DNA of 61,499 nt from an uncultured Thermoplasmatales archaeon. GTDB lineage: Archaea > Thermoplasmatota > E2 > DHVEG-1. The stretch is from assembly GCA_964627915.1 (NCBI GenBank), contig CAZVKY010000001.1:6966-68464 (forward strand), in the 5' to 3' direction. The notes beneath the pieces were generated by a model. It had not been told where the DNA came from. It ran no database searches and saw only the letters and a program-made list of their open reading frames with translations. Made by a program: the position numbers and the translations under genes. Below, one piece after another: positions 2,996 to 38,099 of the stretch (position 1 is the stretch's first letter; the number at the start of each line of letters is the position of its first letter).

Positions 2996-3064
2996 TAATT
3001 GAATTAGTTACGTTAATCTCAGTGGGTTATTATCCTTGGTATTCATAAAGTTTTATGTGATACT

Positions 3065-3484
3065 TCAGAGCTTAAGTTCAGCTAGGCCTGTTTTATCTGA
3101 AATGGTTCTGGTTGCTACTATTTTTGTTTTTAAGAGAGCTATTTCATTTGTTATTGCTACTGTTCCATTGATAAGATGACCGCCCTTTGTTTGTTTTTGT
3201 TCATCACCGATGACGGTGTGTGCATGAATATGAACTGTTTCTTCATTATTGATGATGTTACCGGAGAGGCTGAGTAGTTCATATATGCCTTGAAAGGTTT
3301 GTTTTGTGTAATCATTTTTTTGTTTGAAATAACCAAGTGTTGGGTTTTTGATTTGACCGATACCAGAAAGTATAATTGCTGTGGTTAGATTATGTTTTTT
3401 TGAGAGTTTTTGGAGTGATTGAAGAATGTTTTCTCCAGGATACAATCGAAAGATGATGATATCGTTTTTTTCTTTTGATTTCAT
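3065..3484 (-). CDS. PPC/DUF296-domain protein
   Basis: FRLYPGENILQSLQKLSKKHNLTTAIILSGIGQIKNPTLGYF...HIHAHTVIGDEQ..GGHLINGTV pattern typical of DUF296/PPC proteins. Start set at MKSKEKND (ATG 3482-3484), because the 3523 start would leave only 3 nt to the divergent udg gene. Confidence 0.6.
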   Translation of the reverse strand: MKSKEKNDIIIFRLYPGENILQSLQKLSKKHNLTTAIILSGIGQIKNPTLGYFKQKNDYTKQTFQGIYELLSLSGNIINNEETVHIHAHTVIGDEQKQTKGGHLINGTVAITNEIALLKTKIVATRTISDKTGLAELKL

Positions 3485-3526: not shown

Positions 3527-4144
3527 ATGGAGAGTGGTATCATGTCAAAAGAATCTGAGCTAAATGAAGTAAAGAAAAGAATTATTTCGTGTACAAAATG
3601 TGATCTTTCTAAAACTCGTACGCATCCTGTTGTTGGAGAGGGATCAAGTGATGCTACGATTATGTTTATCGGTGAGGCACCTGGGTTTCATGAAGATAAA
3701 AAAGGTCAGCCCTTTGTGGGCAGAGCTGGAAAGATTCTTGATGAGCTTTTGTCTTCGATTGATTTAAATCGATCGGATGTGTTTATCGTTAATATTTTGA
3801 AATGCCGACCGCCCAATAATCGAAATCCTCAAAAAAATGAGATTCTTGCGTGTACAGAATATCTTGATCGGCAAATTGAAATTATTCAACCAAGTATTCT
3901 GGTACCATTAGGTAATTTTGCTTGTACCTATATTTTTGAAAAATTTGGTATCTCATATGATAAAATTAGCCGTATTCATGGGGAAATCTTTCAGAGGAAT
4001 ACATTGCTTGGATCTCTGTATATTATTCCGATGTATCATCCTGCGGTTTCAACCTATAATCCTCAGAAGAAATCAACGCTTCTTACCGATATGGAATCAT
4101 TACGATCTATTGAGAAGAAACTACTAGTCAAAAACCCCTCATAG
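3527..4144 (+). CDS. udg: uracil-DNA glycosylase, family 4
   Basis: CTKCDLSKTRTHPVVGEG...IMFIGEAPGFHEDKKGQPFVGRAGKILD...VNILKCRPPNNRNP...HPA: family-4 UDG motifs including the Fe-S cysteines. Alternative start MSKES at 3542. Confidence 0.85.
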   Translation: MESGIMSKESELNEVKKRIISCTKCDLSKTRTHPVVGEGSSDATIMFIGEAPGFHEDKKGQPFVGRAGKILDELLSSIDLNRSDVFIVNILKCRPPNNRNPQKNEILACTEYLDRQIEIIQPSILVPLGNFACTYIFEKFGISYDKISRIHGEIFQRNTLLGSLYIIPMYHPAVSTYNPQKKSTLLTDMESLRSIEKKLLVKNPS

Positions 4145-4199
4145 ATCACCGTAAATATTTTTTGTAGCTCGTGAATTTTTTTTTAAAGGTCATGATAAC

Positions 4200-5345
4200 A
4201 TGGAAAAAAGAACAAGAGGTATTCAAAAAGCACCACTTGTTGATTTGTTCTCATCAGTAGATTTTCCTCGGGATATGGTTTCATTAGGTCAGGGAATCCC
4301 GTTTTTTGGTCCACCAATCGAGGTGATTAATACGATTGCAGATGGAATAAAAAGACCAAGTGCTTATCGATATACTGCTGATGCAGGGGTATTAACGCTT
4401 AGAAAAAAGATTGCTCAAAAACTTTTTCGGCAGCATGCGTTATCGTTTGATCCAAATCATCAAGTGGTGGTAACGGTAGGGGCGAATCAAGCATTTATGA
4501 ACGCCATCCTTTCTGTTACTAATACGGGTGATGAAATTATTTTGTTTCGACCGACATATTTTAATTATGTGATGGGTGTTCAGCTTGCAGGTTGTATTCC
4601 GATTATTTGTGAAACTGATGAGAATTTTCATCCTCGGATTCAGGATTTACAAAAAAAACTCAGCGAGAAGACAAAAGCAGTTGTTACCATTTCACCAAAT
4701 AATCCAACTGGTGCAGTGTATACTGCTGATGAATTAAAAAAGATTAATGAGTTCTGCGCGTCACATGATTTGTTTCATATCTCTGATGAAGTCTATGAAT
4801 ATTTTGTTTATGATGATGTTATTCATAGGACTCCATTGGTTTTTGATGCTGATTTAGATCATACGATTTCGTTGTTTTCTTTTTCGAAAGCTTTTGGGAT
4901 GTCTGGACTGCGGGTTGGATACATGATGGTTCCTCAGCAGATATATGATGATGTACTGAAAGTTCAGGATACTATTGGGATTTGTGCCCCTGCGCTTTCT
5001 CAGATGGCTGCAGAAGCAGCGATTCAGATGGATGATCGTTATGTTTCTCGTTTTCTGCCAGTGTTTCAAAAAAATCGGGAAATGATGAGGAATCTGTTGA
5101 GCCATCAATCAAAGGTGAAATGCAGTATGCTTAATGGGGCATACTATGTTTTTTTATCGTATAATGGTACTCTTCCATCATGGGAGGTATCCAAACAATT
5201 AGTTGAGGAGTATAAAGTGATGGTTCTTCCGGGATCTGTTTTTGATATGGAGTATTCATTACGAGTATCTTATGGGAATTTAAAAACAAAGGATTTTGAA
5301 AAGGGTTTATATCGGCTGGTAGATGGATTAAATGATATCCTTTAA
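4200..5345 (+). CDS. class I/II pyridoxal-phosphate-dependent aminotransferase
   Basis: SPNNPTGAVY and SFSKAFGMSGLRVGY (PLP-lysine motif). 381 aa. Confidence 0.85.
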   Translation: MEKRTRGIQKAPLVDLFSSVDFPRDMVSLGQGIPFFGPPIEVINTIADGIKRPSAYRYTADAGVLTLRKKIAQKLFRQHALSFDPNHQVVVTVGANQAFMNAILSVTNTGDEIILFRPTYFNYVMGVQLAGCIPIICETDENFHPRIQDLQKKLSEKTKAVVTISPNNPTGAVYTADELKKINEFCASHDLFHISDEVYEYFVYDDVIHRTPLVFDADLDHTISLFSFSKAFGMSGLRVGYMMVPQQIYDDVLKVQDTIGICAPALSQMAAEAAIQMDDRYVSRFLPVFQKNREMMRNLLSHQSKVKCSMLNGAYYVFLSYNGTLPSWEVSKQLVEEYKVMVLPGSVFDMEYSLRVSYGNLKTKDFEKGLYRLVDGLNDIL

Positions 5346-6956: not shown

Positions 6957-7571
6957 TCATAGCTTTATTGATTTATTTTGCCAGAGCTTGTAGATGGCAA
7001 TGCTTAATATCGCTGCAAAACAGATAAAACAGATTATAGCTATGTACAGAAAAAGTGGATCTTGATAGATCAGTGTTACATTTTCTCTTCCTTGTTCGAG
7101 AAGTATTTTTCCATTTTCTGGAAAAGCGGTTCCATTTGGGGATGATGGAAGACTTGATTTGTTACCCTCTATGATATCAGTAGCATCCATGGTTCCTAGT
7201 TGATTGTAATCGGCCGTGGATATAATGGTTCCCTTTGCCCAGAGAAATATTTGTGTAATCGCTGCAAATAATGCCACAAAGGAGGTAGTGAACAATACCA
7301 CGATTTTTGTATTTTCAGGATGAAGAAGACTTTCCCCTTTCCAGGATAATTTGTAATAAACCCATTTATGCCCTGGCCGTTGTTTCTTTTTGACAAGGCC
7401 AGTATCAATTAGTTTTTTGAGATGTTCATGAAGCGTTGCTTTGTTTAATTTAGTATTAGTACTTAATTCAGTAAGATTCATCTGTTTTCCATCAAGGGTC
7501 TTGATAATGTTTAATCGTGTTTCTGATGCTAATGCTTTGAATGCTTCTTTGTTAAGAGTGACCTTTGGCAT
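6957..7571 (-). CDS. membrane-tethered ArsR-family winged-helix transcription regulator
   Basis: N-terminus FKALASETRLNIIKTLDGKQMNLTELSTNTKLNKATLHEHLKKLIDTGLV is ArsR/wHTH-like. Two hydrophobic segments follow (IVVLFTTSFVALFAAITQIFLWA and LFLYIAIICFICFAAILSIAIY), flanking an intervening polar loop of roughly 60 aa. Confidence 0.7.
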   Translation of the reverse strand: MPKVTLNKEAFKALASETRLNIIKTLDGKQMNLTELSTNTKLNKATLHEHLKKLIDTGLVKKKQRPGHKWVYYKLSWKGESLLHPENTKIVVLFTTSFVALFAAITQIFLWAKGTIISTADYNQLGTMDATDIIEGNKSSLPSSPNGTAFPENGKILLEQGRENVTLIYQDPLFLYIAIICFICFAAILSIAIYKLWQNKSIKL

Positions 7572-11202: not shown

Positions 11203-11516
11203 AAAACTTCACCCATTTCGTATTATTCTTCTTATTATAAATATTTATTGCTGATTTGATTTTAATATCATTGTTTTTACAGTAATCTACAAGATGTTTG
11301 CACTTTTTTGAAAGACAATGAGAAAATGTAAGTCGAGAAGAACTTGTTAATACTCCTAAGTTTTAATGGTCAATGGCAAAAAGTGCAAAAGTATTGATAA
11401 TAAAATATAAAAGTATTAAGGCTTTGGATTTATGATTAGGTTTAATTATCGAAAAACTATAAAAAATAAATTAAAGCATATATTATTTTAAACATTCATA
11501 AAATATATTTTTTTCT

Positions 11517-13475
11517 TTACTTTGATTGAATAGTGATTTTTTTAGTCATGAGCTCAAGAGGCCGATGTCTGAGAGGAATAACAAGAATTTTTGACTGTAT
11601 CGTTGATTTTTCTGAATAAAACTGTGGAGCATGAAAAGAAACGAGAGTTCCAATTCTTATCTGGGGAATTCTAAGAGGAGAAAAAAACAAAAAAAGTGCT
11701 TTTTCTTGAAGGTGCAATGAAGAATAAAGAGAAACATTAAATGTTTCTTTTTGATGGATTGTGTCAGGAGCTAAAACATATCGGTTTATACTATGTTTTT
11801 CTTCAGTGATAGAAACAAATATGATCTCTTTACTTGTTTGATTTTTGGTATGAACGGTGAGATTTATTTTGTATCGACCTGCAGCAAGGTTTTGAGTATC
11901 CCACGTGCATAATGTACTATTTGTTACGGGTTGTATACCTTGATTGAAATAAATCCATGGGTGCTGATCAGTATCAATGGATGAGATAAGTTGATAGCTG
12001 CAGGTATAATGATGAAACTGTTTTCCATTTGCGGTTCCAATGATATCTATTTCTGTTGTTTGTATTGGTGATATGGGTTTGAGTGAGGCATTTGGCAATG
12101 TTTCGGTTGTTATGTTTGTGGAAATCTCAATTTTGCCATATCCTTGGGTGGTGAGATTATATCCAATGTCTTTGGCATGTGATCGTAAAGCCATTTTTAC
12201 TTCATATGCTGACCAGCTTGGATTTTGATTAAGCAGTAATGCGCAGTATCCAGCGACATAGGGACAAGCCATACTGGTGCCACTTAAGGTCTCATAAATG
12301 TGGTTCAACCAGGTGCTTTTTATATGAACTCCTGGTGCAACGACATCGGGTTTAACCAGTGAAAGACGATATGATCCCCTTGAACTAAAAGGTGCGATTA
12401 TATTTTCTGATGAGGTTGCCCCAACTGCAATTACATCTTGTGCAATGGCTGGTGATGATATTGTGTTTTGTTCTGGACCTTGATTTCCTGCAGCAGAAAC
12501 CACTATGATTCCCATGGAAACAGCGTTTTGGGCTGCTTGACTGAGCATATCATCACTGGTTCCTTCTGGATCACCTGCACTAATTGAGATGATATTTACA
12601 TGATCGGAGATGTTACCATCATTGTTTGGATCTATTGCTCGTTCAAATGCTTGCAAAAAAGCGGAGGTATGTCCTGTTCCTTCCTCGTTGAGTACTTTAT
12701 ATGAATAATAATATGAATCTGGAGCAACACCCATAAATGGATCATAGGCTGATCTCGTTTCGTTTCCAACTGCAATACCGGCACAATGAGTGCCATGGCC
12801 ATGATCATCCATTGGATCTGAATCATTGTTTACAAAATCATACCCTCCTAAGTATTGTTTATTTAATGCAGGGTGGGTGTAATCCACACCAGTATCGAAA
12901 AAAGCAATGGTTGTTGAGCTGTCGGCTAGGCTAGCATGGGAATCTATTTCTGATTCAGTTCTATTTGATGATGAATCAGGTGCAGATATATCAAGATTAG
13001 TTACACTTATTTCTTTATCCCTTGTGATTCTTTTTACTAGTGGAAGTTTTTCAATGTTTTCTGCGATTTGAGCATTAATTCCTTTTAAAACAATGGCATT
13101 GAGAATAAGATTATATTGTCTGGTAAATAGTAGTTTTTTATCGCTATACATGGATTGAATATTTTGTTTTACGTTTTGTTGAATCATTGAAATATTTTGT
13201 TTGATTTGTTGGAATAGCTGTGTTTGGTTTAAACTAGTAAGCTGAATGGAACGGTTTTGTTGAGCCTCTAAGAGTTTTTGAATCCCATTTTTTTCGGTTA
13301 ATTCAATGATGTATGTGGATTCTTCTTGATTTTCGTATTGTACTGTTAACGAAATAGCATTCATTATGGATGCATTGGAAAAAAGGATACTGAACACTAT
13401 ACCTATCAAAAGAATATGAACAATTCGTTTTGAGAAAGATGTAATATAACGAGATTTGTGTAATAATGTCTGCAT
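11517..13475 (-). CDS. secreted subtilisin-like serine protease (peptidase S8) with I9-type propeptide
   Basis: Catalytic triad motifs FFDTGVDYTHP (D), HGHGTHCAGIA (H), SGTSMACPYVAG (S). N-terminal signal anchor, and a roughly 200-aa C-terminal extension. Confidence 0.9.
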   Translation of the reverse strand: MQTLLHKSRYITSFSKRIVHILLIGIVFSILFSNASIMNAISLTVQYENQEESTYIIELTEKNGIQKLLEAQQNRSIQLTSLNQTQLFQQIKQNISMIQQNVKQNIQSMYSDKKLLFTRQYNLILNAIVLKGINAQIAENIEKLPLVKRITRDKEISVTNLDISAPDSSSNRTESEIDSHASLADSSTTIAFFDTGVDYTHPALNKQYLGGYDFVNNDSDPMDDHGHGTHCAGIAVGNETRSAYDPFMGVAPDSYYYSYKVLNEEGTGHTSAFLQAFERAIDPNNDGNISDHVNIISISAGDPEGTSDDMLSQAAQNAVSMGIIVVSAAGNQGPEQNTISSPAIAQDVIAVGATSSENIIAPFSSRGSYRLSLVKPDVVAPGVHIKSTWLNHIYETLSGTSMACPYVAGYCALLLNQNPSWSAYEVKMALRSHAKDIGYNLTTQGYGKIEISTNITTETLPNASLKPISPIQTTEIDIIGTANGKQFHHYTCSYQLISSIDTDQHPWIYFNQGIQPVTNSTLCTWDTQNLAAGRYKINLTVHTKNQTSKEIIFVSITEEKHSINRYVLAPDTIHQKETFNVSLYSSLHLQEKALFLFFSPLRIPQIRIGTLVSFHAPQFYSEKSTIQSKILVIPLRHRPLELMTKKITIQSK

Positions 13476-13504: not shown

Positions 13505-14446
13505 TTAATCTTGCTTTACGATTCTTGCCGCAGTGTTACCAGAGGAGAGTAATACTACTCTTGATTTTGGTTTTTCATTGATGAGTTCATACCCTATTTT
13601 TTCTGCTAATTTTTTGCTGAATGTTTGTATGGTTTTATGGGATGGCATGTTTTCTAATGTTAATCGTTTTCGTGAGTCACCAACTAGAACAAATCCTTTA
13701 GGTTCAACGAAATCGGGATTGGCTTTTTGGATAAGACGGGCATAGGAATCAATAGCAGAATCGGTCATGTTCCATTTTTGCACAAGGGTATGTCGAATAA
13801 CAGTGCGAGTGTCTAATGAGGGAAGCAAGTCTATTGTTTGATTAAGTTTTTCCCAACCGTTTTTGATGATGGGATTGCAGAGTTTTTTGTATGTCTCTTT
13901 TGTTGGAGCTACTAAAGAGATGTAGAGTTGTTTGGGAAGGGGGCTAAGGTGTTCCAATACTTCGGGGGTGGTTCCATTGGTGACAAGAAAAGTGGTCATA
14001 TTCTTTTGATGACAAGCTTCAAAAAAATCACCTAATTTTGGGTAGAGTGTTGGTTCTCCAGATAATGAACAAGCAACCATATTTGGGGTATTTGCTTCCT
14101 TCCATTTTTTCATATCGCATCGATCATCACCTTTGAATCCGGTGATTAATTGTTGTTGAGCTTTGATGATTCCTTCAAGGATTTCTTGAGGGTCATCTGA
14201 TTCTTCGAGATGTTCTTCGGTGAATCCCTGGTACCGCCAGCAGAAAAGACAATTTTGAGTACAGTGATTGATTGTTGGAGCCATTTGCAGGCAACGATGG
14301 GATTGTATACCGTAGAAATCCTGTTTATAACAATGTCTTTTATGGATCAGGCTTTGTTTTAACCAATGGCAGAGTTTCACCCCGGAATGATTGCCGACAA
14401 TAGAATAGTGTTGTTTTTCCAAGCGTTTTTTAATTTTTGATTCCAT
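13505..14446 (-). CDS. taw1: tRNA 4-demethylwyosine synthase (Taw1/TYW1-type radical SAM)
   Basis: KLCHWLKQSL...RCLQMAPT..CTQNCLFCWR (radical SAM CxxxCxxC plus upstream Cys cluster), SLSGEPTLYP. Size and layout match archaeal Taw1. Confidence 0.8.
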   Translation of the reverse strand: MESKIKKRLEKQHYSIVGNHSGVKLCHWLKQSLIHKRHCYKQDFYGIQSHRCLQMAPTINHCTQNCLFCWRYQGFTEEHLEESDDPQEILEGIIKAQQQLITGFKGDDRCDMKKWKEANTPNMVACSLSGEPTLYPKLGDFFEACHQKNMTTFLVTNGTTPEVLEHLSPLPKQLYISLVAPTKETYKKLCNPIIKNGWEKLNQTIDLLPSLDTRTVIRHTLVQKWNMTDSAIDSYARLIQKANPDFVEPKGFVLVGDSRKRLTLENMPSHKTIQTFSKKLAEKIGYELINEKPKSRVVLLSSGNTAARIVKQD

Positions 14447-14539
14447 GTAAATACCTGTTTTTTTATCTTTTTATGGTGAATCTCATGAATATGGTCCTTT
14501 ATAAGTGTATATGGGCTTTTGATTATTACTCTGAAAGAA

Positions 14540-15334
14540 TTATATTTTGTTTGGTAATTGATGCTGTAAGCATAATTTTTTAATGAGTTCATTTACTGAT
14601 TTCGTATATTGTTCAGATGGACGAATGGCATCAGTGTATAGATAGTTATATGTTGTTTGCAAATGAGGATAATAATGTTGAATAAGATTAAAAAAGGCAG
14701 TTTTTTGATATCCTTTGAGTTCTAGATAGGTATGAATGAAATAATCTGCTCTGTGTTTTTTTGCTTTTTTGATGAGTGTTTCAATGTGATTTTTTGTATC
14801 GGTGATACCTGGTATGATGGGAATCATTGCTACACCCGTTTTTGCGTGGGAGGTGAGTTGTTGCATGGTTTCTAATCGTGATAGTGGTGATGGGGTTTTT
14901 CCTTCAAAAAGATGCCAGATGTGTTCATCATTGGAAAGAATACTAAATGTAATCCAGACATTATTCATTTTTTTTAAAATATCAAGATCTCGGAGAATTA
15001 AGGTTGATTTGGTTAGAATATGGACTGGAACCTGTTTTTTTTGTAAGATTTGTAAAAGAGACCGGGTTATTTCATATTTTTTTTCAATCGATTGATAGGG
15101 ATCATGCACCGATCCGATGATGATTCGTCCTTTTTTATGATGAGGTAATTCTTTTTTGAGTAATTCACTAGCGTTTTTGGTAATATAAATGGTATGATCA
15201 AAAGCGGAATCACAATAGGAACATCCAAACTCACAATGTTGATAGGGATCAATGGTATACTTCCCATGAAAAAGCGCATCATCCCGAGTGATGGTTTTAA
15301 TAAGACTGTTTTGCTGGATGCATTTATAGGTCAT
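14540..15334 (-). CDS. radical SAM protein (SPL/photolyase-like family)
   Basis: IDPYQHCEFGCSYCDS motif near the N-terminus. 264 aa. Confidence 0.75.
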   Translation of the reverse strand: MTYKCIQQNSLIKTITRDDALFHGKYTIDPYQHCEFGCSYCDSAFDHTIYITKNASELLKKELPHHKKGRIIIGSVHDPYQSIEKKYEITRSLLQILQKKQVPVHILTKSTLILRDLDILKKMNNVWITFSILSNDEHIWHLFEGKTPSPLSRLETMQQLTSHAKTGVAMIPIIPGITDTKNHIETLIKKAKKHRADYFIHTYLELKGYQKTAFFNLIQHYYPHLQTTYNYLYTDAIRPSEQYTKSVNELIKKLCLQHQLPNKI

Positions 15335-17824: not shown

Positions 17825-19204
17825 TTAGAAATATTTGACAAACCATGGGAACAATACAATAAAAAGGATGATTAATGAAATAAAGATGGTGACATTGCGA
17901 ACGATGTTTTCTCTTTTTTCTTCTGAGATTGTTGCTTTCATTCGTTTGACTATTCCGCGTATTGCATCTGAGAACAGAAATCCGCCATCAAGAGGGATCA
18001 TTGGTAACACATTAAACATGCCCACTACAAGATTCAACCAGAAAATCCAGTATAAGGCATTAGTAATACCCCAAAAGAGATTGCTTGGAAGAAGAGATAA
18101 TGGACCCTCAATTATGTACCCTTGTGTGAATGGTGCGACTAAGGGGTTATATCCTGCCATGTAACCAAAGAAGGGAAGCGCATAGACTAGGAGGAGGCCA
18201 TCTGGAAAATCGGAGGTAAAGGGATGTTGAAGATATCCAATGAATTTTGAAACGTTATAAATATTGAGTCCAATACCGAGAAAACTATCATTTTTATCTG
18301 AAACATTTTTTGAGAACTGGGATTTATCAGCTAATGTGACCGTGGTAGTTATATTTTTATAGTCATGAAGATAAGTGATAGGAATCGTTTGGTTTACAGC
18401 AGTGTTATTTATAATGATGAGAAATGTGGAAACATTTTCAACTTCAGTATTATTTAGTGTTTTGAGGATGTCTCCAGCTTGCAATCCAATGTCATCAGCT
18501 GGGCTTTGATCGACAACATAAGGAATATGGTATCCATCTATCGGTTGAACCGCGGCCATAAAACCAAAAGAGAAAATGATCATGACAATGATAGCAACAG
18601 TAAAATTTGACATGGGGCCTGCGGCATACACACGCATTCGGTTACTAATTTTTGTTTCTTTGAGTTGGTCTTCATCTGGTTCACAGAATGCTCCGAGTGG
18701 AATGATGAGATATAAAACTCCAAGTGATTTTACTTTTAACGAATGAGCAAAGGTAAGGATTCCATGGGAAAATTCATGCACAATTACAGCGATGATTAAT
18801 CCAATAAGGATGTAAACTAAAAATTCTAAAGGGAGAATGGGGTTTAAACCAGGGATTACTAATCCGAATTCAATGCCGGGGAGTTCTTGTTGTTGTTGAG
18901 GAGTAAATTCCAGAACCGTCCAAGTATTTAACGCAAGAAGAAAGATCATGAAAAACATCATGAGAAAACAAAAAATGACTCCAACGGTTCCATAGCCTTT
19001 CCAAAATCGTTTTTTATTGGCTATTTTTCGTAGACTATTTACTCCTTTTTTTGTTCGAAGGAGTAAGGCTGGACCATAAAATGAAATGTTATATTTTTCA
19101 AATAATCCTTTTTTATAAAGAAATATTACTCCTATAATATATCCTGCAAGGATAATTGCAATCAAGAGAAGTATGTCTATGGTACTCATAATGCGATGAT
19201 GCAA
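17825..19204 (-). CDS. site-2 protease family (M50) intramembrane metalloprotease with PDZ-like insert
   Basis: HEFSHG (HExxH) and NVLPMIPLDGG (NxxPxxxLDG). Polytopic. Alternative start MSTID at 19189. Confidence 0.85.
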   Translation of the reverse strand: MHHRIMSTIDILLLIAIILAGYIIGVIFLYKKGLFEKYNISFYGPALLLRTKKGVNSLRKIANKKRFWKGYGTVGVIFCFLMMFFMIFLLALNTWTVLEFTPQQQQELPGIEFGLVIPGLNPILPLEFLVYILIGLIIAVIVHEFSHGILTFAHSLKVKSLGVLYLIIPLGAFCEPDEDQLKETKISNRMRVYAAGPMSNFTVAIIVMIIFSFGFMAAVQPIDGYHIPYVVDQSPADDIGLQAGDILKTLNNTEVENVSTFLIIINNTAVNQTIPITYLHDYKNITTTVTLADKSQFSKNVSDKNDSFLGIGLNIYNVSKFIGYLQHPFTSDFPDGLLLVYALPFFGYMAGYNPLVAPFTQGYIIEGPLSLLPSNLFWGITNALYWIFWLNLVVGMFNVLPMIPLDGGFLFSDAIRGIVKRMKATISEEKRENIVRNVTIFISLIILFIVLFPWFVKYF

Positions 19205-26579: not shown

Positions 26580-28085
26580 GTGATGATCACAGTGGATAAA
26601 CGATTACTCATCCTCATTGGCTTACTCATTATCCTCATTGGATCAACAATCATTATTCTTCTTCCCTCTGATCCATCTACTATTGATACAGATAATGATG
26701 GGATTATGAATGATAAGGATGAATTTCCAAATGATTCATCTGAATGGAATGATACAGATAATGATGGTGTTGGTGATAATCAGGATAAATTCCCCTTTGA
26801 TCCCGCTGCAAGTATGGACTCTGATGATGATGGATATCCTGATAAATGGAATGAAGGAAAAGATGCAAATGATAGCACCTCAAATCCACCATTGATTAAG
26901 GATGATCTTCCCTTTGATCCAACTGAGTATCAGGATTCTGATGGTGATGGATTTGGTGATAATAGTGATGTTTTTCCTTATGATCCCTCAGAGTGGAAAG
27001 ATTCTGATGGAGATGGCATTGGTGATAATGCTGATCAAAATCCACTGGTAAATCTTTCATTGGAAATTATGATTGATAAATGTCTTTTCTCAAAGCATGT
27101 AGATATTCTTCCTTGGGCTCAAATCTATTTTGAGTTTACTGTTAATGGTGAAGAGACTATTATTTTTGATAACAATCAAAATTACTGGAGAATGTGGAAA
27201 AACCAGCAAACATCTGTTGATGTTGTTTTTCAATATGATATTCCTGATGATACAACAAGACCATTTACGGATATTGAAATTAAAATGTTTGATTATGATC
27301 TTTTTTTAGAAGATGATCTCATTGATATTAATGAAACATCTGGTGAATCCTCTGTTGTCATTCGCTTGAATCATGCAACAAATGAAATCCAAGGAACCGG
27401 TGTATCAGAAGGTGAAAAAGGAAAGATTTGGTATACCATAACAAAAGGATCTGAGGTTGAACCAACAAATATTACCATTGATAAAACATATGAATTTCGT
27501 TTTAACAATAAAAAATATGAGGTTTCATTAAACATTCCAAATCAAAAATATATGTGGTATCAGAATCGGTTAACGAATCGTAGTCCTCAGCAGTTAAATA
27601 ACAAGCAGGCGATGGCTGATTTTGTTACTAAAAATGATGTAGTGATCACTCAACTTGCAGAAAAATTAGATTCAATAGCTTTAAATGAAGGTTTCACAGA
27701 AATTCAACGGCTTAATTTTATGCTTAATTTTGTTCAGTATGTGGTTGATTATCAGGATGATAATAGTACTGCAGGTTGTGAAGAATATTGGCGGTATCCT
27801 ATTGAGACATTAGTTGAACAACGGGGTGATTGTGAGGATAGCACGTTGCTGTTTGCTTCCATCATGGAAAACGTTGATGTTGATAGTGTATTATTGTTTT
27901 ATGTGCTTGATGATACAAATGGTCATCTTGCTACAGGGATCCAGAGTGATGAAAATATTTCTGGAACAGTTATTGATTATAAACAAAAAAGTTATTATTA
28001 TTGTGAAACGACCTCAGTTGGTTTTGCTGTAGGTGAAAAACCGTCTGAAATACCTGATGATCCAGAAACAATCATCCCATTATAG
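26580..28085 (+). CDS. membrane-anchored TSP type-3 repeat protein with C-terminal transglutaminase-like core
   Basis: N-terminal TM, five DxDxDGxxDxxD calcium-binding repeats, and a C-terminal RGDCEDSTLLFASIM ... NGHLATGI ... YYCETT (Cys-His-acid arrangement). Confidence 0.75.
   Translation: MMITVDKRLLILIGLLIILIGSTIIILLPSDPSTIDTDNDGIMNDKDEFPNDSSEWNDTDNDGVGDNQDKFPFDPAASMDSDDDGYPDKWNEGKDANDSTSNPPLIKDDLPFDPTEYQDSDGDGFGDNSDVFPYDPSEWKDSDGDGIGDNADQNPLVNLSLEIMIDKCLFSKHVDILPWAQIYFEFTVNGEETIIFDNNQNYWRMWKNQQTSVDVVFQYDIPDDTTRPFTDIEIKMFDYDLFLEDDLIDINETSGESSVVIRLNHATNEIQGTGVSEGEKGKIWYTITKGSEVEPTNITIDKTYEFRFNNKKYEVSLNIPNQKYMWYQNRLTNRSPQQLNNKQAMADFVTKNDVVITQLAEKLDSIALNEGFTEIQRLNFMLNFVQYVVDYQDDNSTAGCEEYWRYPIETLVEQRGDCEDSTLLFASIMENVDVDSVLLFYVLDDTNGHLATGIQSDENISGTVIDYKQKSYYYCETTSVGFAVGEKPSEIPDDPETIIPL
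26685..27044 (+). repeat. in-frame coding repeats (5 thrombospondin type-3-like Asp-rich units)
   Basis: DTDNDGIMNDKDEFPND / DTDNDGVGDNQDKFPFD / DSDDDGYPDK / DSDGDGFGDNSDVFPYD / DSDGDGIGDNADQNP. GAT-rich DNA opens spurious ORFs on both strands. Confidence 0.8.
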
Positions 28086-30916: not shown

Positions 30917-31110
30917 CGTTTGTTCCGTCGTGGGAATCTCTGTTGCTTTATATAATGCTTTTTGATTGTAATTGAGTAATCGCATCTTTTGATCTCAACT
31001 TTTTTAGAAAAATAGAACCATATTATATTAATTTAACAATAAAATATATATCAAAAAAGCGTATTGGGTTTTCTCAACAAATAAAAAAATATGAATGAGA
31101 TGACGCTACC

Positions 31111-31590
31111 GTGAAACGATTACACGTTTTTTTAAAGAACAATAATGCAGTTTCTGAGGAATTTACCGCTCTTCCTGCATTAGCGATGGTGATGATAGGA
31201 ATCACTCTTTTTTTAATTATTCTTTCTAGTAGTTACACAAGTCTTGAAAACCAAACGAATCAAGTTGAACAAATCAAACAAGCAGAGTATATCTCATCTC
31301 AACTGTTGAACCCAACCGCTCCATTTATTTCATCTAAAGGCAGTTTCAACCTAGAATGTTTTCAGCAAAACAGTGGAAAAAAATATGTGACATTGTTACA
31401 AAAATCCATGAACCAGGTCTCACTTAATTTTACTACAAAGCTTTCATTTCAAAATTCATCTTTTTATTTTCCCAATCCTCCACCAACTAATCATCAAAAT
31501 ATCCTTGGCTATTCAACAGCAATAACCCTTGATCTAAATGAGGTGTATACCTGTCCAGGAATGATTACCATTATTATGTGGGAGAGATAA
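31111..31590 (+). CDS. hypothetical N-terminally anchored protein P1 (pilin-like head)
   Basis: GTG start. MKRLHVFLKNNNAVSEEFTALPALAMVMIGITLFLIIL, then a polar Q/N/S-rich domain. Ends MITIIMWER*. Confidence 0.6.
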   Translation: MKRLHVFLKNNNAVSEEFTALPALAMVMIGITLFLIILSSSYTSLENQTNQVEQIKQAEYISSQLLNPTAPFISSKGSFNLECFQQNSGKKYVTLLQKSMNQVSLNFTTKLSFQNSSFYFPNPPPTNHQNILGYSTAITLDLNEVYTCPGMITIIMWER

Positions 31591-31598
31591 ACCATATC

Positions 31599-32939
31599 AT
31601 GAAAAGAAAACAAAAGAAAAAACAAAGGAAAAAATTCTGGTCAAATACACAAGCGTTATCAGTAATGTATGATGCAGTGTTGTTTCTTGTATTAGTTTCG
31701 CTATCTGGTATCATTCTTTTTCCTGCTTTACAACCTCAGATTCTTTCTGATGTAACAATTGAGGAATTAAATGAGAAAAAAGTCGATGATATTCACCATA
31801 TGATGCTGTGTTCTATGCCGGAACAATGTCAGTATTCAGTTGCTGGCAATCTTATAGATGAGGCCGCTATTTCATTAGGCATTAATACCACTCAGGAGGA
31901 GGGATTATATCAGACAATAATTAATCGAGTTATTGGCCATGAGCTGCATCATTCTACCTTTGCTCAGCTGATTGTAGAAAACCTAGCAGTTCAATGGCAG
32001 TTTTCCCTGTTTAATCAGAGTGTTAATCAGCTGAACATGCTCACAAGTGAATATAGCAGTGCTTTGACAGAGGAAATTCAATCATTTTTAGATGAACAGT
32101 TATCGCAGCGGTATCATTATCAGTTCAACGCACAATGGTATCCTATTACTGGAATATCATTCGGGGGTTCCTTAAGTGCAGGTGAAACCCCACCGGAGAC
32201 GAATTATTTCATCTCAAAGAAAACAGTTTCAATGCCGTTTCCGCCAGCACTGAGTTGGGATGATAAAACTGTTGTATTCTCAGAATATTGGATAGAATCC
32301 ATGTTCTTAGATTTATTTATTGAAAAACAACAACAGTTAGATAATATATCTATGATTACACAAAAAATTCATAATCAGACCAATTTAGTAAATGATTCCC
32401 AGTTCTTTAAACAACATCTTTCAGAGAATCTCACTAATCTTTTTATTGATTTTACTGTTGATGGTATTTACCTGACAAATAATTCTCTTTTTTTCTCTGG
32501 AGTTATATCATTATTGATAGATGAATTATTCTCATCGCTATTTGCCTTAATCCATGATGTCGCTGATGAAACGATACAAACAGTTATCGGGGATGGAATA
32601 GCGCAGGTTGAATCGTTTTTTACTGAGATAAATGCAACTAGTCTAATTCAACCCATAGAAGATAGAATAGTTAGTGAAATAAGCATGTTTATCTCAGATG
32701 CGTTGAATACCTCGTTTTCATCTATTGATTCTGCTCTTCATCAGTTAAAAGAGCAGATTAAGCAATTCATCGCTGAAGAACTCTTTCGATTATTTCAACC
32801 AATTGCACTGCAATGTGCAACAATGATTATTGATCATGAACTATCATTAGTAGAAAGTATAAACACGATTTCTTCTTACATCGCTGATCAGTTTTCTATT
32901 TCCCAGGCAACGATGACATTAACGATTTGGGAGAAATAA
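31599..32939 (+). CDS. hypothetical N-terminally anchored protein P2
   Basis: ATG 9 nt after the P1 stop. MKRKQKKKQRKKFWSNTQALSVMYDAVLFLVLVSLSGIILF. Ends MTLTIWEK*. Confidence 0.6.
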   Translation: MKRKQKKKQRKKFWSNTQALSVMYDAVLFLVLVSLSGIILFPALQPQILSDVTIEELNEKKVDDIHHMMLCSMPEQCQYSVAGNLIDEAAISLGINTTQEEGLYQTIINRVIGHELHHSTFAQLIVENLAVQWQFSLFNQSVNQLNMLTSEYSSALTEEIQSFLDEQLSQRYHYQFNAQWYPITGISFGGSLSAGETPPETNYFISKKTVSMPFPPALSWDDKTVVFSEYWIESMFLDLFIEKQQQLDNISMITQKIHNQTNLVNDSQFFKQHLSENLTNLFIDFTVDGIYLTNNSLFFSGVISLLIDELFSSLFALIHDVADETIQTVIGDGIAQVESFFTEINATSLIQPIEDRIVSEISMFISDALNTSFSSIDSALHQLKEQIKQFIAEELFRLFQPIALQCATMIIDHELSLVESINTISSYIADQFSISQATMTLTIWEK

Positions 32940-35668
32940 TGATGTCTAATAGAATTTGTTTCATTAGAAACACTGATGCTCGGATACCTTTTGCCATCAT
33001 TGGTGTATTTCTCCTTCTGGGTAGCAGCATGGTAAGTCTTGTGTTCTCAGAGATGCAACGAGATCAAGTAATTAGTTTTAGTGAAACATCTGATACTGAT
33101 CTTCTTGCTTCATTTGTTTATGATGCTGAATCCGATATCAGTAGAATTGTAAATATGATTGGGATTCGATCATTAGCAAAAATAGCTAAAAACCCGGTGA
33201 TTGACCCAGTTGGAAATGATAGTGCAGCAGTAGTGAATAAAAATCGGTTGAAACAACAACTCGTGTCAGAATTAAATGCTTACTTGATTAGTAATTATTA
33301 TGATAATGCTTTTCATAATAGTAATTATGCTCTTAATGTTGTCATTCCAGAAAATAAATCATACCCTCTTCAGTCAACACAACAGATTAGGATTTCTCCT
33401 GTTGAAATGAAACTAAAAAGAGGGATGAATCTACCCTTTTTAGGGCCAATGGATCAGCAAATGGTTCCTACGTATTGGCGTGTATCTTTTGATCTTCCGG
33501 TGATTATTTCAACACCGTTTTCATCATCACAAAACCTTGTTTTAAATCAAACCTTGCAGATTTCAACAGTGATTAATGTTCGTTACCCATTATTAGTTCA
33601 TTTGGTTGATGAATATCAGCAGACTATTGATGGATTAGGGCCAATGTGGACAACAACGACATTGTTGTCAAATGTGTATTCGTTAGCCCGAGGATATAAA
33701 CATTATCAATCAGGTAAACCCTTGAATGTGGTGGCAAACAAGCATCTAGCACCAATAGTGAATGCTGGTTTATTGCTTGAGGAAAGTCTAGTCTTTGGAA
33801 GTGTGGATCCTGGTTTTCTTATAGAGTTTATTAATCAGCTGCAACAATCAATCCGAAAAAAAGATGGGGTTACTTCTCTTAATCAGTGTAATAGCCTTGT
33901 TGATAATATGTTTTCAATAGATGTTTCTGATTTTTCTGAAATCCCTATTGATGGTGATGAACCGGGTAATATTTCAGCTTCTCCTCCAATAGTAAATATT
34001 TCTTGGATTGCTGAACAGCCATTGTATTGGTATCCAATAGTAACTCTGCTGTTTTCTAGTGATACTGGAGAAATAATAACAGAAATGTTAGATAATCCTA
34101 CTGCTGATGATATTCAGGATTGTATTAATTCACAATTAAAAAATGGATCTATTTTTAAAGAAATAGTGCGAAAAGATCCAATGAGAAATAGTTCAACTCA
34201 ACAAATTGTCAGAGATATTATTGAAACAACGTATAGCTCTGTGTTTTCCTCTGTTGTTCAAAAACAGAATACCCCAAGTATCACCTTGGGAGATCATGAT
34301 GGGTATCCTATTGATAACGGCTCAAGCTCTTGGGTGTTTGATAAACATATTCTTAAAGAAACAAAGGGAAAACCAGGGAAAGGATCAATTCAACCAGGGT
34401 CAACATTGTATACTGAGTGGTATGATGTGATCTGGAAACGGGATCATATTTGGAGTAAAAAAGAAATCATCCATCAAGGAAATGAAACCATTACTAATTG
34501 GGAATCAATAAAGGTTACAGATAAAAAAACTGAAGAAGATGTAATGATTATGATTCGTCTTAATTATTATGGTAACAACGATACGATCTGTGATGTTTTT
34601 TACCCGTTTGCGGATGATTTTGATTCTAATTTAGCGGATACTATTGAAATCTATAACATTACGGTGTTTCAACCATCTATTTCAAATCTTCTTCAATCAT
34701 ATCCTGGTTCATATCATCAACAAGCAATACTTGGATCTATCCCTGATTGGGTTGAACAAAAAATATGGGAAAAATGTGATCAACATCTGAAAAACATTAG
34801 TCAGATCACCCTTGATGAAAACATCACTATTTCCAATTATCCAGATCCCGTTCAATTGTTAACTGCTGTCAGAGCTGATCTGTTATCAAAATATGCTCAG
34901 AGAAAACCAGATATTTTAAAGGAATCTTCATATGTAAATGGCTCCTGTTTTCATAGTGTCGGATGGAATGCGGTCTGGTCTGTTACAGAATGGTATGTGA
35001 ATACCGTTCAGGATGATATACATCGGGTGGTTACACAGTTGATTGAATCAGTTGAATCAACCATGGATACATCTGTTGCTTCCGTTGATGATGTTTCTGG
35101 AACTGATGTAAAACAAGCATTGAGTGCACAGAGTCTTGGATCAATGGATGATATGATCGCTATTCCATTAGGCTATGATCTTGATCTTTTCTTAAATGAG
35201 AATTCGAATTATTCTCATCATGAAACCCTTCGACTTGCAGTGGATCATCAGCCTAATTATTTAAATCCATTCGAAAAACAAACAATTGATGATTCTGAAA
35301 AGTATTTTATAAAAATTGAAAATATCTGCACGCTTGGTTCAACTGGTCTTCCATTGTTACCACCTACACCAACGACGCCTTGGATAATAACCCTTAACAT
35401 ATGGATCATTCGGGTGAGCGGTCATTATGCTGAATTTAGCGTTTCTGATTGTAATCAGGAAACCATTTTTCATCCACTTATGGGACATGTGCCCCTTGTG
35501 TATTGTAGAAAGGATGCTCCAGTCTATGATGATCAGGGAACACTGATTGGATATAATAGACCGTTATCGTTTTCATTGGACCTTGTTGCTTGTAGTGTTG
35601 TCCCCTCCTGGGGGATGATGGTTGGAGATATTGAAGGTGGTCTTATTGAAACTCATGGTGGCTCATAA
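32939..35668 (+). CDS. hypothetical large N-terminally anchored, sequon-rich protein P3 (909 aa)
   Basis: ATG overlaps the P2 stop (TAATG). MMSNRICFIRNTDARIPFAIIGVFLLLGSSMVSLVF. Many N-x-S/T sites and no catalytic motif recognised. Confidence 0.65.
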   Translation: MMSNRICFIRNTDARIPFAIIGVFLLLGSSMVSLVFSEMQRDQVISFSETSDTDLLASFVYDAESDISRIVNMIGIRSLAKIAKNPVIDPVGNDSAAVVNKNRLKQQLVSELNAYLISNYYDNAFHNSNYALNVVIPENKSYPLQSTQQIRISPVEMKLKRGMNLPFLGPMDQQMVPTYWRVSFDLPVIISTPFSSSQNLVLNQTLQISTVINVRYPLLVHLVDEYQQTIDGLGPMWTTTTLLSNVYSLARGYKHYQSGKPLNVVANKHLAPIVNAGLLLEESLVFGSVDPGFLIEFINQLQQSIRKKDGVTSLNQCNSLVDNMFSIDVSDFSEIPIDGDEPGNISASPPIVNISWIAEQPLYWYPIVTLLFSSDTGEIITEMLDNPTADDIQDCINSQLKNGSIFKEIVRKDPMRNSSTQQIVRDIIETTYSSVFSSVVQKQNTPSITLGDHDGYPIDNGSSSWVFDKHILKETKGKPGKGSIQPGSTLYTEWYDVIWKRDHIWSKKEIIHQGNETITNWESIKVTDKKTEEDVMIMIRLNYYGNNDTICDVFYPFADDFDSNLADTIEIYNITVFQPSISNLLQSYPGSYHQQAILGSIPDWVEQKIWEKCDQHLKNISQITLDENITISNYPDPVQLLTAVRADLLSKYAQRKPDILKESSYVNGSCFHSVGWNAVWSVTEWYVNTVQDDIHRVVTQLIESVESTMDTSVASVDDVSGTDVKQALSAQSLGSMDDMIAIPLGYDLDLFLNENSNYSHHETLRLAVDHQPNYLNPFEKQTIDDSEKYFIKIENICTLGSTGLPLLPPTPTTPWIITLNIWIIRVSGHYAEFSVSDCNQETIFHPLMGHVPLVYCRKDAPVYDDQGTLIGYNRPLSFSLDLVACSVVPSWGMMVGDIEGGLIETHGGS

Positions 35669-35681
35669 AAAAGAAGATGGT

Positions 35682-36065: not shown

Positions 36066-38099
36066 TTATGTTTTTTCATTTAGTATTTGCCGTAATGGAA
36101 TATAGGCAAGAAGAAGTGCAATAAATGCCCAGATGAGAATACCTGGCCACCAGGGAGCATAAGTAAACAAGGATAGATTGATACCGATGACTACAAGAAT
36201 AGCAATGGCCACGCCCATCAGCGCTTCTCCTGCGACAAGACCAGCAGTAAATAGTAATCCAGTGCGGATTGTTTTTTCTTGTGGTTTGATATCGGTTTGT
36301 TTGATGGCTAGTTCCCAATCACTTATTTGTTCCTCCTCTGATGTTCCATAGCGTTTTTGTAGATAGCTATCCGTGAAATGTCGGATGATTCCACCTGAAA
36401 AAATAGGTATTGATAAGGTAAAAGGTAAATAAATACCAATAGCTACTGGCAGCACGGGTAGATCTATCAGGATGAGCACTACCGCAAGAACCATACCGGC
36501 TATGACATAAGGCCAGAGCATTTCACCACCGAGTACTCCTTGCACGATTCCTTTCATGAGAAAGGCTTGTGGTGCAGGTAATTGCCGACTTCCAATAGTG
36601 AATGCTTCATGAAGGACACCGATGACCAGACCAATTACTGATGATATCGCAAGGACACCAAGGGTCATGGAGATTTGAAGTTTTCGTGGAGTTGCTCCTA
36701 GCATTTGTCCGCAGGCCATGGATTGAAGTAGGTCTCCAGAGATGGATCCGCCAATACAGATAACTGCTGAGATAAATACAACGATAGCCATTCCTGCTGG
36801 TCCGGTAACACCAAAACTAAGCATGATTAAACTAACCACCAGTAATACTGCAACGGTGACTCCGGAGATTGGACAGTTTGAGGATCCAACGAGCCCCGTG
36901 AGATAGCCAGCGAGAGCACTGGCTAGAAAAGCAAAGCCTATGGTGATAACGGCCATTATGAGTGAGATAGCGATAAGTTCTGATAACCAAATGTAGAGTA
37001 AAAAGATAGGGATGATCATTAAGACGATGAAGGTAAAGACAAGTTTGTATCGAACGTCTTGTTCTGTTCGTTTTTTATTTGGGTTTTCACCTCCTTTTAA
37101 TCCCATGATGGCTTCTTTCACACTATCCACTAGGTTGTAACGAATGGACCAGATCGCCCATAATCCACCAACAAGCATTGCACCAACTCCAAGGTAACGG
37201 ATTTGATTTCCCCAGATTTGGAAAAATCCCCAGATATATGTTCCGAGTTCTAGGTTTCCATGCCCCATGGCAAGGGCATCGGATAGTTGAGCTTGGGTGC
37301 TTGGACTTGGTAAACCAGTGGCTAAAGCTACAAGTGGAGCGATGATACTCCATCCGATGAGTCCTCCAACGAGAACGTAGGATGAAATTTTTGGTCCAAT
37401 GATCCATCCAACTCCAAGTAGTGCTGGTGAAGTGGTTACTCCGCCATAAACCCATCCCTGATTGTTTTTTCCCCCAATGGAAAATGTTCCTATTGAGGTG
37501 ATATATTCTATAGTTCCCCGAAAGATATTAAGCGATAGTTCTCCAAATTTATATAAAGCTGCAACAAAGGCTCCTACAAGTAACCATTTGCCACTAATCT
37601 CATTTGTTTTTTTGTCTGCTTGTTCTCCACCTACTGTCGTGGTAAGAACTGCAGCAACAGCAACTCCTTCTGGGAATGGTAAATCGGTTTTTACGACTAA
37701 TGCTCTCCGGAGGGGCACCATCCATAGCACGCCGAGTAATCCACCGAGTAATGAGATGATACTTGTTTCAAGATAATGAATTTCTGTCCAGGTGCCAAGA
37801 AGCACAAGGGCAGGTATGGTAAAGATGACTCCTGCTGCAATGCATTCTCCTGCTGAAGCACCCATCGTTGCTAGATTGACTTCAAGAATGGTGCCTTTGA
37901 ATGGCTTTAACAATGCTACTGCCATTACGGCTCCTGGGATGATAGCAGAGACAGTCATTCCTGCATAGAGTCCAAGATATGCATTTGCTGCCCCAAGAAT
38001 AATGGCGAGCAATACTCCAACGATAACTGCTTTAAAGGTGAGCTCCGGAATGATTTTTTCTGAGGGGATAAATGAGTGAAAGTTTTCCCGAGAAGTCAT
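36066..38099 (-). CDS. OPT-family oligopeptide transporter
   Basis: 677 aa polytopic protein. N-terminal ELTFKAVIVGVLLAIILGAANAYLGLYAGMTVSA is typical of the OPT superfamily. Confidence 0.85.
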   Translation of the reverse strand: MTSRENFHSFIPSEKIIPELTFKAVIVGVLLAIILGAANAYLGLYAGMTVSAIIPGAVMAVALLKPFKGTILEVNLATMGASAGECIAAGVIFTIPALVLLGTWTEIHYLETSIISLLGGLLGVLWMVPLRRALVVKTDLPFPEGVAVAAVLTTTVGGEQADKKTNEISGKWLLVGAFVAALYKFGELSLNIFRGTIEYITSIGTFSIGGKNNQGWVYGGVTTSPALLGVGWIIGPKISSYVLVGGLIGWSIIAPLVALATGLPSPSTQAQLSDALAMGHGNLELGTYIWGFFQIWGNQIRYLGVGAMLVGGLWAIWSIRYNLVDSVKEAIMGLKGGENPNKKRTEQDVRYKLVFTFIVLMIIPIFLLYIWLSELIAISLIMAVITIGFAFLASALAGYLTGLVGSSNCPISGVTVAVLLVVSLIMLSFGVTGPAGMAIVVFISAVICIGGSISGDLLQSMACGQMLGATPRKLQISMTLGVLAISSVIGLVIGVLHEAFTIGSRQLPAPQAFLMKGIVQGVLGGEMLWPYVIAGMVLAVVLILIDLPVLPVAIGIYLPFTLSIPIFSGGIIRHFTDSYLQKRYGTSEEEQISDWELAIKQTDIKPQEKTIRTGLLFTAGLVAGEALMGVAIAILVVIGINLSLFTYAPWWPGILIWAFIALLLAYIPLRQILNEKT

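Follow-up and report, generated by a model that had tools for sequence, protein, structure and literature searches.

In archaea, the ATPase and TadC modules of type IV systems have an evolution independent of that of the pilins and can work with pilin sets from other loci (PMC4858521, section 11), and pilin sets located apart from the ATPase/TadC module are a documented archaeal type IV feature (PMC4858521; also the discussion in the 2026 preprint of Sivabalasarma & Albers, bioRxiv 10.64898/2026.04.22.720090). In the Epd pilus of Methanococcus maripaludis, several minor pilins are each required for piliation (PMC4858521; 2026 preprint). The locus type considered here has been described as type IV pilus (T4P) subclade 4F (Makarova, Koonin & Albers 2016, PMC4858521), as type IV filament (TFF) subsystem 4F (Sivabalasarma & Albers 2026 preprint, bioRxiv 10.64898/2026.04.22.720090) and, in haloarchaea, as the pilB2/pilC2 type IV regulon adjoining cetZ2, whose biological role is unknown (PMC9856176). 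The 4F ATPase/TadC of euryarchaea was inferred to be horizontally acquired and of hybrid origin (Makarova et al., PMC4858521). In this study, we analyzed a 61.5-kb stretch of DNA from an uncultured Thermoplasmatales archaeon (61,499 nt, called the window below), which carries three consecutive genes named P1, P2 and P3. Homology and synteny identify this trio as the Thermoplasmatota form of the DUF7285-like/DUF7284/DUF7286 module found in euryarchaeal TFF pilin and accessory gene sets. We consider it fairly probable that the trio is a conserved three-gene TFF module encoding a minor-pilin/adhesin-like sub-complex that would be processed and assembled by machinery encoded in trans.

An earlier, sequence-only reading of this DNA had placed the three genes and called them tightly coupled, and both points agreed with the open reading frame (ORF) list and the raw sequence, from which the genes are as follows:

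31111..31590, forward strand: P1, 159 aa, GTG start, TAA stop at 31588-31590
31599..32939, forward strand: P2, 446 aa from the ATG, TAA stop at 32937-32939
32939..35668, forward strand: P3, 909 aa, ATG start at 32939-32941

Pfam membership was taken as a whole-protein score above the gathering cutoff of 27 bits (PF23955, PF23956 and PF23957). By profile score, P3 is a member of the DUF7286 family (PF23957), with 90 bits (E=1.9e-25) over three stretches, the best being the C-terminal domain (residues 802-905). Its leader ends in ...IRNTDA and is followed by RIPFAIIGVFLLLGSS... and a large multi-domain ectodomain. In the family alignment, 51 residues of P3 are invariant, the N-terminal motif is [DN]-x-x-[AG]-[RHY]-[IV]-P-[FY]-[AS]-x-[ILV]-G-x-x-L-[ILV]-x-[GS]-S, and the C-terminal domain is conserved as LGxTGLPxLPPTPxTPW..N.W. 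There were 41 full-length homologues of about 910 aa, whose source names, where given, were Thermoplasmatota, Thermoplasmata or Euryarchaeota, and a P3 profile search gathered 502 representative clusters, among them haloarchaeal proteins of 1000-1100 aa that are rich in Arg and Ala. The P3-family profile retrieved haloarchaeal DUF7286 proteins, and the homologue in locus L078 of Haloferax prahovense (related loci are numbered with the prefix L) scored 1012 bits against DUF7286. A tblastn search of a plasmid collection with the P3 C-terminal domain and haloarchaeal DUF7286 gave no match, and a literature search on the names DUF7284, DUF7285 and DUF7286 returned no papers.

P2 is likewise a member of its family on profile evidence, scoring barely over the cutoff against DUF7284 (PF23955; 28.0 bits, E=2.6e-6), while hhalign of the P2 family with haloarchaeal DUF7284 gave 97.5% probability (E=7.5e-12) and PF23955 was among the precomputed Pfam matches of eight of ten P2 homologues. 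It has a basic leader ending in ...SNTQA, then LSVMYDAVLFLVLVSLSG..., a mixed helical/beta ectodomain and the C-terminus ...TLTIWEK; its homologues share ...[AG]-[LVI]-S-[VAI]-M-x-D-A-[VI]-L-F... near the N-terminus and ...T-L-T-I-W-E at the C-terminus. In P1, the leader MKRLHVFLKNNNA is followed by VSEEFTALPALAMVMIG..., with a single hydrophobic helix and a small ectodomain, and the protein ends in ...GMITIIMWER. It had no match to DUF7285 (PF23956) at the 27-bit cutoff, and four of nine P1-family members matched PF23956 below threshold (best E=0.0095). Full-length comparison of the P1 family with haloarchaeal DUF7285 by hhalign gave P=3.7e-5 and 71% probability, and a smaller alignment gave E=4.8e-4 and 32%. 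The P1 gene lies directly before DUF7284, which is the position of DUF7285 in Halobacteria. In its family alignment (A7), E16, E17, F18, L21, P22, A23, G30 and W157 are invariant, and the homologues carry [AG]-[VI]-[SA]-E-E-F-[TS]-x-L-P-A-[LM] at the N-terminus and G-x-[LI]-[TS]-[VI]-[IVM]-x-W at the C-terminus. From these weak profile matches, the gene order and the shared terminal motifs, P1 is a probable DUF7285 homologue.

The sequence-only reading had seen a likeness to DUF families of haloarchaeal pilus loci, which proved correct: Pfam assigned DUF7284 and DUF7286, and the families stand in the same order behind an ATPase and TadC in Halobacteria. It had also noted a common C-terminal motif in P1 and P2. 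The hydrophobic strand with its Trp is indeed kept in the homologues of both and in haloarchaeal DUF7283, DUF7284 and DUF7285, with endings such as ...LRVRVWR, ...VRTWSP and ...RRVTWG.... The paralogy of P1 and P2 suggested from this motif found little support, as the profiles aligned over the N-terminal 53 residues only (48% probability) besides the short C-terminal motif, and we reject paralogy over the whole length. Neither Pfam nor NCBIfam gave an enzymatic family for P1-P3, in line with the absence of a recognizable catalytic motif remarked on before, and NCBIfam had no meaningful match. A defense-system function was rejected: PADLOC gave a weak KwaA match on a transmembrane helix (15.7 bits) and two weaker ones.

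For the haloarchaeal counterpart, 80 loci with DUF7286 genes were collected with a haloarchaea-only alignment, and the ORFs of L078 were chosen by a filter on G+C at third codon positions (GC3) and compared with Pfam. The gene order in L078 is cetZ (opposite strand), DUF7311, a T2SSE ATPase of 660 aa, a TadC-like protein of 591 aa, DUF7283, DUF7285, DUF7284, DUF7286 and DUF5791, so that DUF7285-DUF7284-DUF7286 corresponds to P1-P2-P3. By tblastn, the ATPase was found in 71/80 and the TadC-like gene in 73/80 of these loci; in nearly all that have them, the ATPase and then the TadC-like gene lie directly upstream and co-directional, and the exceptions are mostly contig ends or a few Halorussus-type rearrangements. 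The L078-type locus matches both the pilB2/C2 regulon next to cetZ2 and subclade 4F. The window resembles it in the equal order and orientation of the three genes, in the tight junctions, in the C-terminal strand and Trp motif, and in the N-terminal motifs, which in haloarchaea are R-A/G↓Q/T-T-E-P..., R-A↓I/V-S-T-V.D... and R-G/A↓R-V-P-F-A-L.G (the arrow marks the class III-type site). Unlike the window, the haloarchaeal operon includes the ATPase, the TadC-like platform, DUF7283 and DUF7311 and often lies beside cetZ2; DUF7284 is about 300 aa there, compared with 446 aa for P2, and the residue at -2 is Arg rather than N, Q or D. Subclade 4F is a pilin set linked to the 4F ATPase/TadC, and the window holds the pilin-set part only. 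In L078, the CetZ tubulin-like gene is at 2172-3266 (minus strand) and DUF7311, the first gene of the locus, at 3929-4390; the haloarchaeal DUF7311 start appears to coincide with the hydrophobic segment.

The trio is also conserved as a unit among Thermoplasmatota. Twelve loci with gene calls and precomputed Pfam matches and a further 80 metagenome loci were scanned with hidden Markov models (HMMs); the 93 Thermoplasmatota loci amount to 1.27 Mb with flanks of up to 10 kb, 39 of them being at least 15 kb long and some being duplicates. The P1-P2-P3 module was found in all 93 at 26-90% identity, with its order and tight P2-P3 junction kept, in at least three genomic contexts. In the window-like arrangement, a divergent leuS is followed by P1-P2-P3, usually a fourth gene, and then cupin, OPT and Hef genes. 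Elsewhere, the same three or four genes stand in other neighborhoods, such as L087/L161 and L120-L137. The third arrangement is an extended operon of about 10 genes (L088, L090 and L092), which is split into two divergent operons in L089, L091, L100, L125 and L147: two Ig-like pilin-like genes, a coiled-coil membrane protein and two pilin-like genes precede P1, P2 and P3, which are followed by a gene for a MAST/sarcinarray protein and then by a DUF7311-like or pilin-like gene. The loci L088-L092 resemble the window in having P1, P2 and P3 homologues in equal order (P1 at 21-35% identity) and no ATPase/TadC nearby. They differ in the five added upstream genes, the MAST/sarcinarray protein and the DUF7311-like or pilin-like gene, and in keeping, for the most part, a basic residue at -2 (R/K-G in L088, L090 and L092; K-A, with one N-A, in L089 and L091), whereas the window has only the three core genes with x-A.

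The five-gene block occupies L088:5752-8334, L090:5545-8203 and L092:3536-6086 and lies on the opposite strand in L089 and L091; its coiled-coil protein has a C-terminal transmembrane segment. No homologue of the block was found in the window by tblastn. A match at E=8e-4 to the ORF of an ArsR-type regulator (6957-7571) reflected similarity of transmembrane segments and was not an extended-operon gene. DUF7311, the first gene in haloarchaea, is the last gene of the L092 extended operon (11411-11992), with an R-G class III-type site. In L090, a Thermoplasmata metagenome-assembled genome, the P1 (8205-8760) and P3 (10001-13071) homologues are each frameshifted, the P1 C-terminal motif continuing in another frame and the P3 gene calls being two, of 799 + 240 aa; pseudogenization or an error in sequencing could account for this. 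In the metagenomic L144 (11692-15109), the P3 homologue is interrupted by an insert of about 3.4 kb with a 438-aa ORF (13682-14998, minus strand) that has a P-loop (GSGKT) and that, judged by eye, we take to resemble a phage terminase large subunit. The insert may represent integration of a virus-like element into the P3 gene or a chimeric assembly.

The product of the fourth gene is a protein with a sarcinarray/MAST domain (NCBIfam TIGR04209/TIGR04204; PF27849 among the precomputed matches), and the positions of the gene include:

L001:12775-13401, L003:12744-13409, L088:13039-13683 and L092:10785-11423: MAST/sarcinarray gene, directly 3' of P3

Its Sec signal, together with a tail like that of PGF- or Heimdall-CTERM proteins, makes this protein a likely archaeosortase substrate. 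The gene was not found in the window, L005, L099, L101, L106, L109, L110 or L087; in the window, 13 nt (35669-35681) separate the P3 stop from the convergent cupin gene. A literature search for 'MAST' in the archaeal context was uninformative.

Regarding the N-termini, the sequence-only reading had claimed a common module in the three products, and each indeed has a short polar leader, an Ala and a single hydrophobic helix. One strong N-terminal hydrophobic segment was found per protein (P1 17-45, P2 17-49, P3 14-39), with a borderline second segment in P2 (297-319), and family-wide conservation extends to the small residue preceding the segment and to the residues that follow. The FlaFind-type rule, reportedly that of Szabo et al. 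from 2007, describes a short charged leader in which position -2 is basic and position -1 is Gly, Ala or Ser, directly before about 20 hydrophobic residues. Applied by eye, it finds in the window proteins the Ala at -1 and the hydrophobic stretch, with N (P1), Q (P2) and D (P3) at -2, as had been pointed out earlier. The residues at -2/-1 were:

L092: P1 RG, P2 RG, P3 RG
L088: P1 RG, P2 KG, P3 KG
L090: P1 RG, P2 RG, P3 RG
L091: P1 KA, P2 KA, P3 KA
L089: P1 NA, P2 KA, P3 KA
L086: P1 RA, P2 TA, P3 SA
L087: P1 SA, P2 SA, P3 DA
L001: P1 NA, P2 HG, P3 SA
L003: P1 YA, P2 FA, P3 TA
L005: P1 SA, P2 HA, P3 KA
Window: P1 NA, P2 QA, P3 DA

The residue at -1 was Ala or Gly in all P1, P2 and P3 homologues examined, and [KR]-G occupied -2/-1 in all three in L088, L090 and L092. 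The L092 sites are NDSRG↓ISEEFTSLPAM (P1), YDRRG↓ISAVQDAVLF (P2) and HDERG↓RVPFAVLG (P3). In the extended operons, this pairing of a basic residue and Gly ahead of the helix is seen in almost all pilin-like products. Pilin-like genes of these operons have KDQRG↓IEGLPMKL and SDARG↓VLGLPLRM, and the DUF7311-like gene AGRRG↓AAWIPVRL; of five further pilin-like products of L092, four have [KR]-G and the fifth T-G. Since homologues of all three proteins in deeper-branching relatives carry the basic residue and Gly, the N-termini are read as derivatives of class III (type IV pilin-like) signal peptides, in agreement with the resemblance reported before. The basic -2 residue has been lost jointly across P1-P3 in lineages that retain just the three- or four-gene module, and this joint change may reflect co-evolution with the processing step, through altered peptidase specificity or relaxed cleavage.

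The products had also been called rich in N-x-S/T sequons. Sequon density was compared with that of other window proteins, and counts were compared with shuffles of each protein's own composition. P1, P2 and P3 have 1.9, 2.0 and 1.65 sequons per 100 aa, other predicted secreted proteins about 1.8-2.4 and cytoplasmic proteins of the window mostly 0.1-0.8. Counts exceeded the shuffles for P2 (9 vs. 3.6 ± 1.7) and P3 (15 vs. 8.5 ± 2.7), and P1 (3 vs. 2.7 ± 1.4) shows no enrichment beyond composition. The single N-terminal helix of each protein and the sequon richness are consistent with extracellular products, as was proposed.

The DNA before and between the three genes contains the following elements:

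30986..31110, forward strand: AT-rich stretch between P1 and the divergently oriented leuS, presumed to be the promoter of the three genes
31580..31584, forward strand: GGGAG Shine-Dalgarno-like box at the end of P1, 14 nt upstream of the P2 ATG
32929..32933, forward strand: GGGAG Shine-Dalgarno-like box at the end of P2, 5 nt upstream of the P3 ATG

The intergenic region contains a TATA-like run about 60 nt upstream of the P1 start and may act as the promoter; the divergence of leuS and P1 is kept in L001-L005, L086 and many metagenome loci. The P1 GTG is the sole in-frame start downstream of the preceding stop. The P2 ATG lies 8 nt downstream of the P1 stop, an in-frame GTG at 31578 being an alternative start, and the P2 TAA and P3 ATG overlap in TAATG (32937-32941); this junction measured -19 to +4 nt in 11/11 related loci with gene calls. 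The GGGAG boxes would have a translational role. They are supplied by the C-terminal Trp-Glu codons of P1 and P2 (TGG GAG, 31579-31584 and 32928-32933), and an RNA-level constraint may act on the Glu following the conserved Trp; in haloarchaeal homologues, the Trp is conserved and the Glu is not.

No assembly machinery had been seen next to the trio, and wider searches upheld this. No ATPase, TadC or prepilin peptidase was found in the window, and a tblastn search with the haloarchaeal ATPase against the window and 10 loci gave nothing meaningful (best E=3.0), and the corresponding search for TadC had no match. ATPase and TadC HMMs, the latter made from haloarchaeal sequences only for a family that diverges fast, had no match at E<=1 with filters off in the 93 loci. 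Neither PF00437 (T2SSE) nor T2SSF was in the precomputed Pfam lists of 12 loci, and a scan of ten uncertain window ORFs gave no pilus machinery and no A24 peptidase. Among the components of the 2026 MacSyFinder2 TFF locus definition (ATPase, platform, peptidase and pilin), the ATPase and the TadC/ArlJ platform were not found at the locus.

The AlphaFold2 (AF2) model of P3 (predicted local distance difference test, pLDDT, 79; predicted template-modeling score, pTM, 0.50) suggests that an N-terminal helix and a long helical hairpin are combined with beta-sandwich and helical modules and with a beta domain at the C-terminus. That of P2 (pLDDT 65) suggests an N-terminal helix, helical regions, a beta-sheet at 172-226 and a C-terminal strand at 436-445. 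Foldseek of both models against the PDB gave nothing at E<=0.001 (query-normalized TM <=0.17), and sequence profiles of both families found nothing below E=0.06 among PDB chains, so the models confirm neither a pilin fold nor an adhesin fold. Against BFVD, P3 gave only maturation (pilus-binding) proteins of single-stranded RNA (ssRNA) phages (TM 0.06-0.08), which took the two best ranks, and one such protein appeared far down the PDB list (8tuw_M1, rank 28); with TM 0.04-0.08 overall and a root-mean-square deviation of about 50 A, these were treated as noise.

Considering the above results, we infer the following mechanism for the trio. P1-P3 would be made in fixed proportion from a single translationally coupled transcript and inserted in the membrane via the N-terminal hydrophobic helix, with the short leader on the cytoplasmic side. 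Cleavage after the invariant Ala/Gly is probably the work of a class III (prepilin) signal peptidase whose gene lies elsewhere in the genome, and the ectodomains would be N-glycosylated. Contacts between the N-terminal helices, and perhaps through the C-terminal strand-plus-Trp motif, may then join the three proteins in a minor-pilin-like sub-complex in which P3 would be the large extracellular adhesin-like head. An ATPase of the PilB type and a TadC platform, both encoded in trans, would serve in extrusion or assembly. Adhesion or surface recognition is the most plausible role. The bacterial minor-pilin complexes PilVWX-PilY1 and GspH-I-J-K consist of co-transcribed pilin-like proteins with one very large subunit and are thought to form a stoichiometric complex, not the filament body. 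Such a priming or tip complex is the closest analogy: in both cases, several pilin-like proteins with N-terminal helices accompany one very large subunit that is not of pilin size, whereas no sequence or fold similarity was detected, the leaders differ and the trio has no linked machinery genes. Like the M. maripaludis Epd minor pilins and stand-alone class III genes, the trio comprises pilin-like genes outside a machinery locus; unlike it, Epd involves other protein families, has its own peptidase EpdA in the locus and has experimental support.

Several points weigh against this mechanism. The -2 residue is non-basic (N, Q or D) in all three window proteins, which makes cleavage uncertain, and throughout the P3 family the +1 position is occupied by Arg, an atypical residue there for a class III substrate and one outside the FlaFind pattern. 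With no machinery in the window or in the 1.27 Mb around the 93 loci, machinery in trans is assumed. P2 and P3 are far larger than filament-forming pilins, and their models match no solved pilin or adhesin fold. To our knowledge, DUF7284, DUF7285 and DUF7286 have no experimental function in any organism, and the haloarchaeal pilB2/C2 locus is itself of unknown function (PMC9856176).

Some of the same observations would fit P1-P3 being an autonomous, ATPase-independent envelope complex of uncleaved, signal-anchored proteins, a module that Halobacteria secondarily joined to ATPase/TadC; in relatives it would act with the archaeosortase-sorted MAST protein, for example as a surface-protein anchor or organizer. 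No ATPase/TadC match in 93 loci, the disappearance of the basic residue at -2 from all three proteins together in trio-only clades, a MAST-domain surface protein as the most constant neighbor and the inferred horizontal acquisition of the euryarchaeal 4F ATPase/TadC (Makarova et al., PMC4858521) all speak for it. We nevertheless hold it unlikely: -1 is always Ala/Gly and the leader is short and basic or polar, as expected if cleavage is still selected, sister clades hold the same proteins among pilin-like genes with [KR]-G sites, and pilin sets away from machinery are common in archaea (PMC4858521). More specifically, the trio, usually with MAST, could be an ancient self-sufficient pilin-derived anchor or adhesin complex needing no dedicated ATPase or platform, a proposal that we think quite improbable, as we do its extension that the window clade perhaps also needs no prepilin peptidase and that Halobacteria recruited the module to an acquired ATPase/TadC. 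If this were true, the joint -2 loss would mark the point at which cleaved pilin-like subunits turned into proteins held permanently by their signal anchors.

The trio might instead be a functionless, decaying remnant of a larger pilus operon from which the rest of a cluster of about 10 genes was lost. The five pilin-like and coiled-coil genes upstream are indeed missing from the window clade, as is the MAST gene from the window, the class III motif has degenerated, and frameshifted or interrupted copies occur in L090 and L144. Decay is nonetheless very unlikely, given intact ORFs of 159, 446 and 909 aa with lengths kept across 26-90% identity, dozens of invariant residues (51 in P3), conserved coupling, enriched sequons and the recurrence of the reduced module across many independent metagenomes and in genomic contexts of more than one kind. 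The preference of the sequence-only reading, a new system unrelated to type IV filaments, rested on features that persist, namely no characterized homologue, no fold match in PDB or BFVD and no nearby machinery. It is now scarcely credible, as P2 and P3 fall in Pfam families, the trio is collinear with haloarchaeal pilB2/C2 loci and relatives embed it in operons of class III signal-peptide proteins. The trio is not a new system, because its families are in Pfam, its locus type is described (4F, PMC4858521 and bioRxiv 10.64898/2026.04.22.720090; pilB2/C2 regulon, PMC9856176) and stand-alone pilin sets are established in archaea; the claim of an undescribed system was therefore dropped. A TFF sub-complex served in trans remains the reading that we favor.

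Other genes of the window include one at 26580-28085, which adjoins leuS syntenically in relatives and encodes a predicted secreted protein of 501 aa with 1.8 sequons per 100 aa; its Asp-rich repeats are thrombospondin type 3-like, and at its C-terminus is a transglutaminase-like (DUF553 / Peptidase_C93-like) domain. At 11517-13475 (minus strand) lies a gene whose product, by eye, is presumably a large secreted protease resembling subtilisin, with 2.3 sequons per 100 aa, and at 17825-19204 (minus strand) one that we take by eye to encode a site-2-type membrane protease. An OPT-family oligopeptide transporter is encoded at 36066-38099 (minus strand), PF03169 matching the syntenic gene in relatives. 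Together, the two proteases and the transporter suggest a peptide-scavenging sediment Thermoplasmatota.

The trio does not create a new category, stand-alone pilin sets and modular ATPase/TadC exchange being already established for archaea. What appears new is that DUF7284/DUF7285/DUF7286 is an invariant collinear core common to Halobacteria and Thermoplasmatota, that this core lies next to machinery in none of the 93 sampled Thermoplasmatota loci, and that in the window clade it is down to three genes whose class III sites have changed in concert. The trio is a minimal target for Haloferax genetics and for complex structure prediction. Because the core persists where ATPase, platform, MAST protein and the remaining pilin-like genes have all been stripped away, and because its class III site has changed jointly, our results point to a discrete sub-complex as the functional unit.

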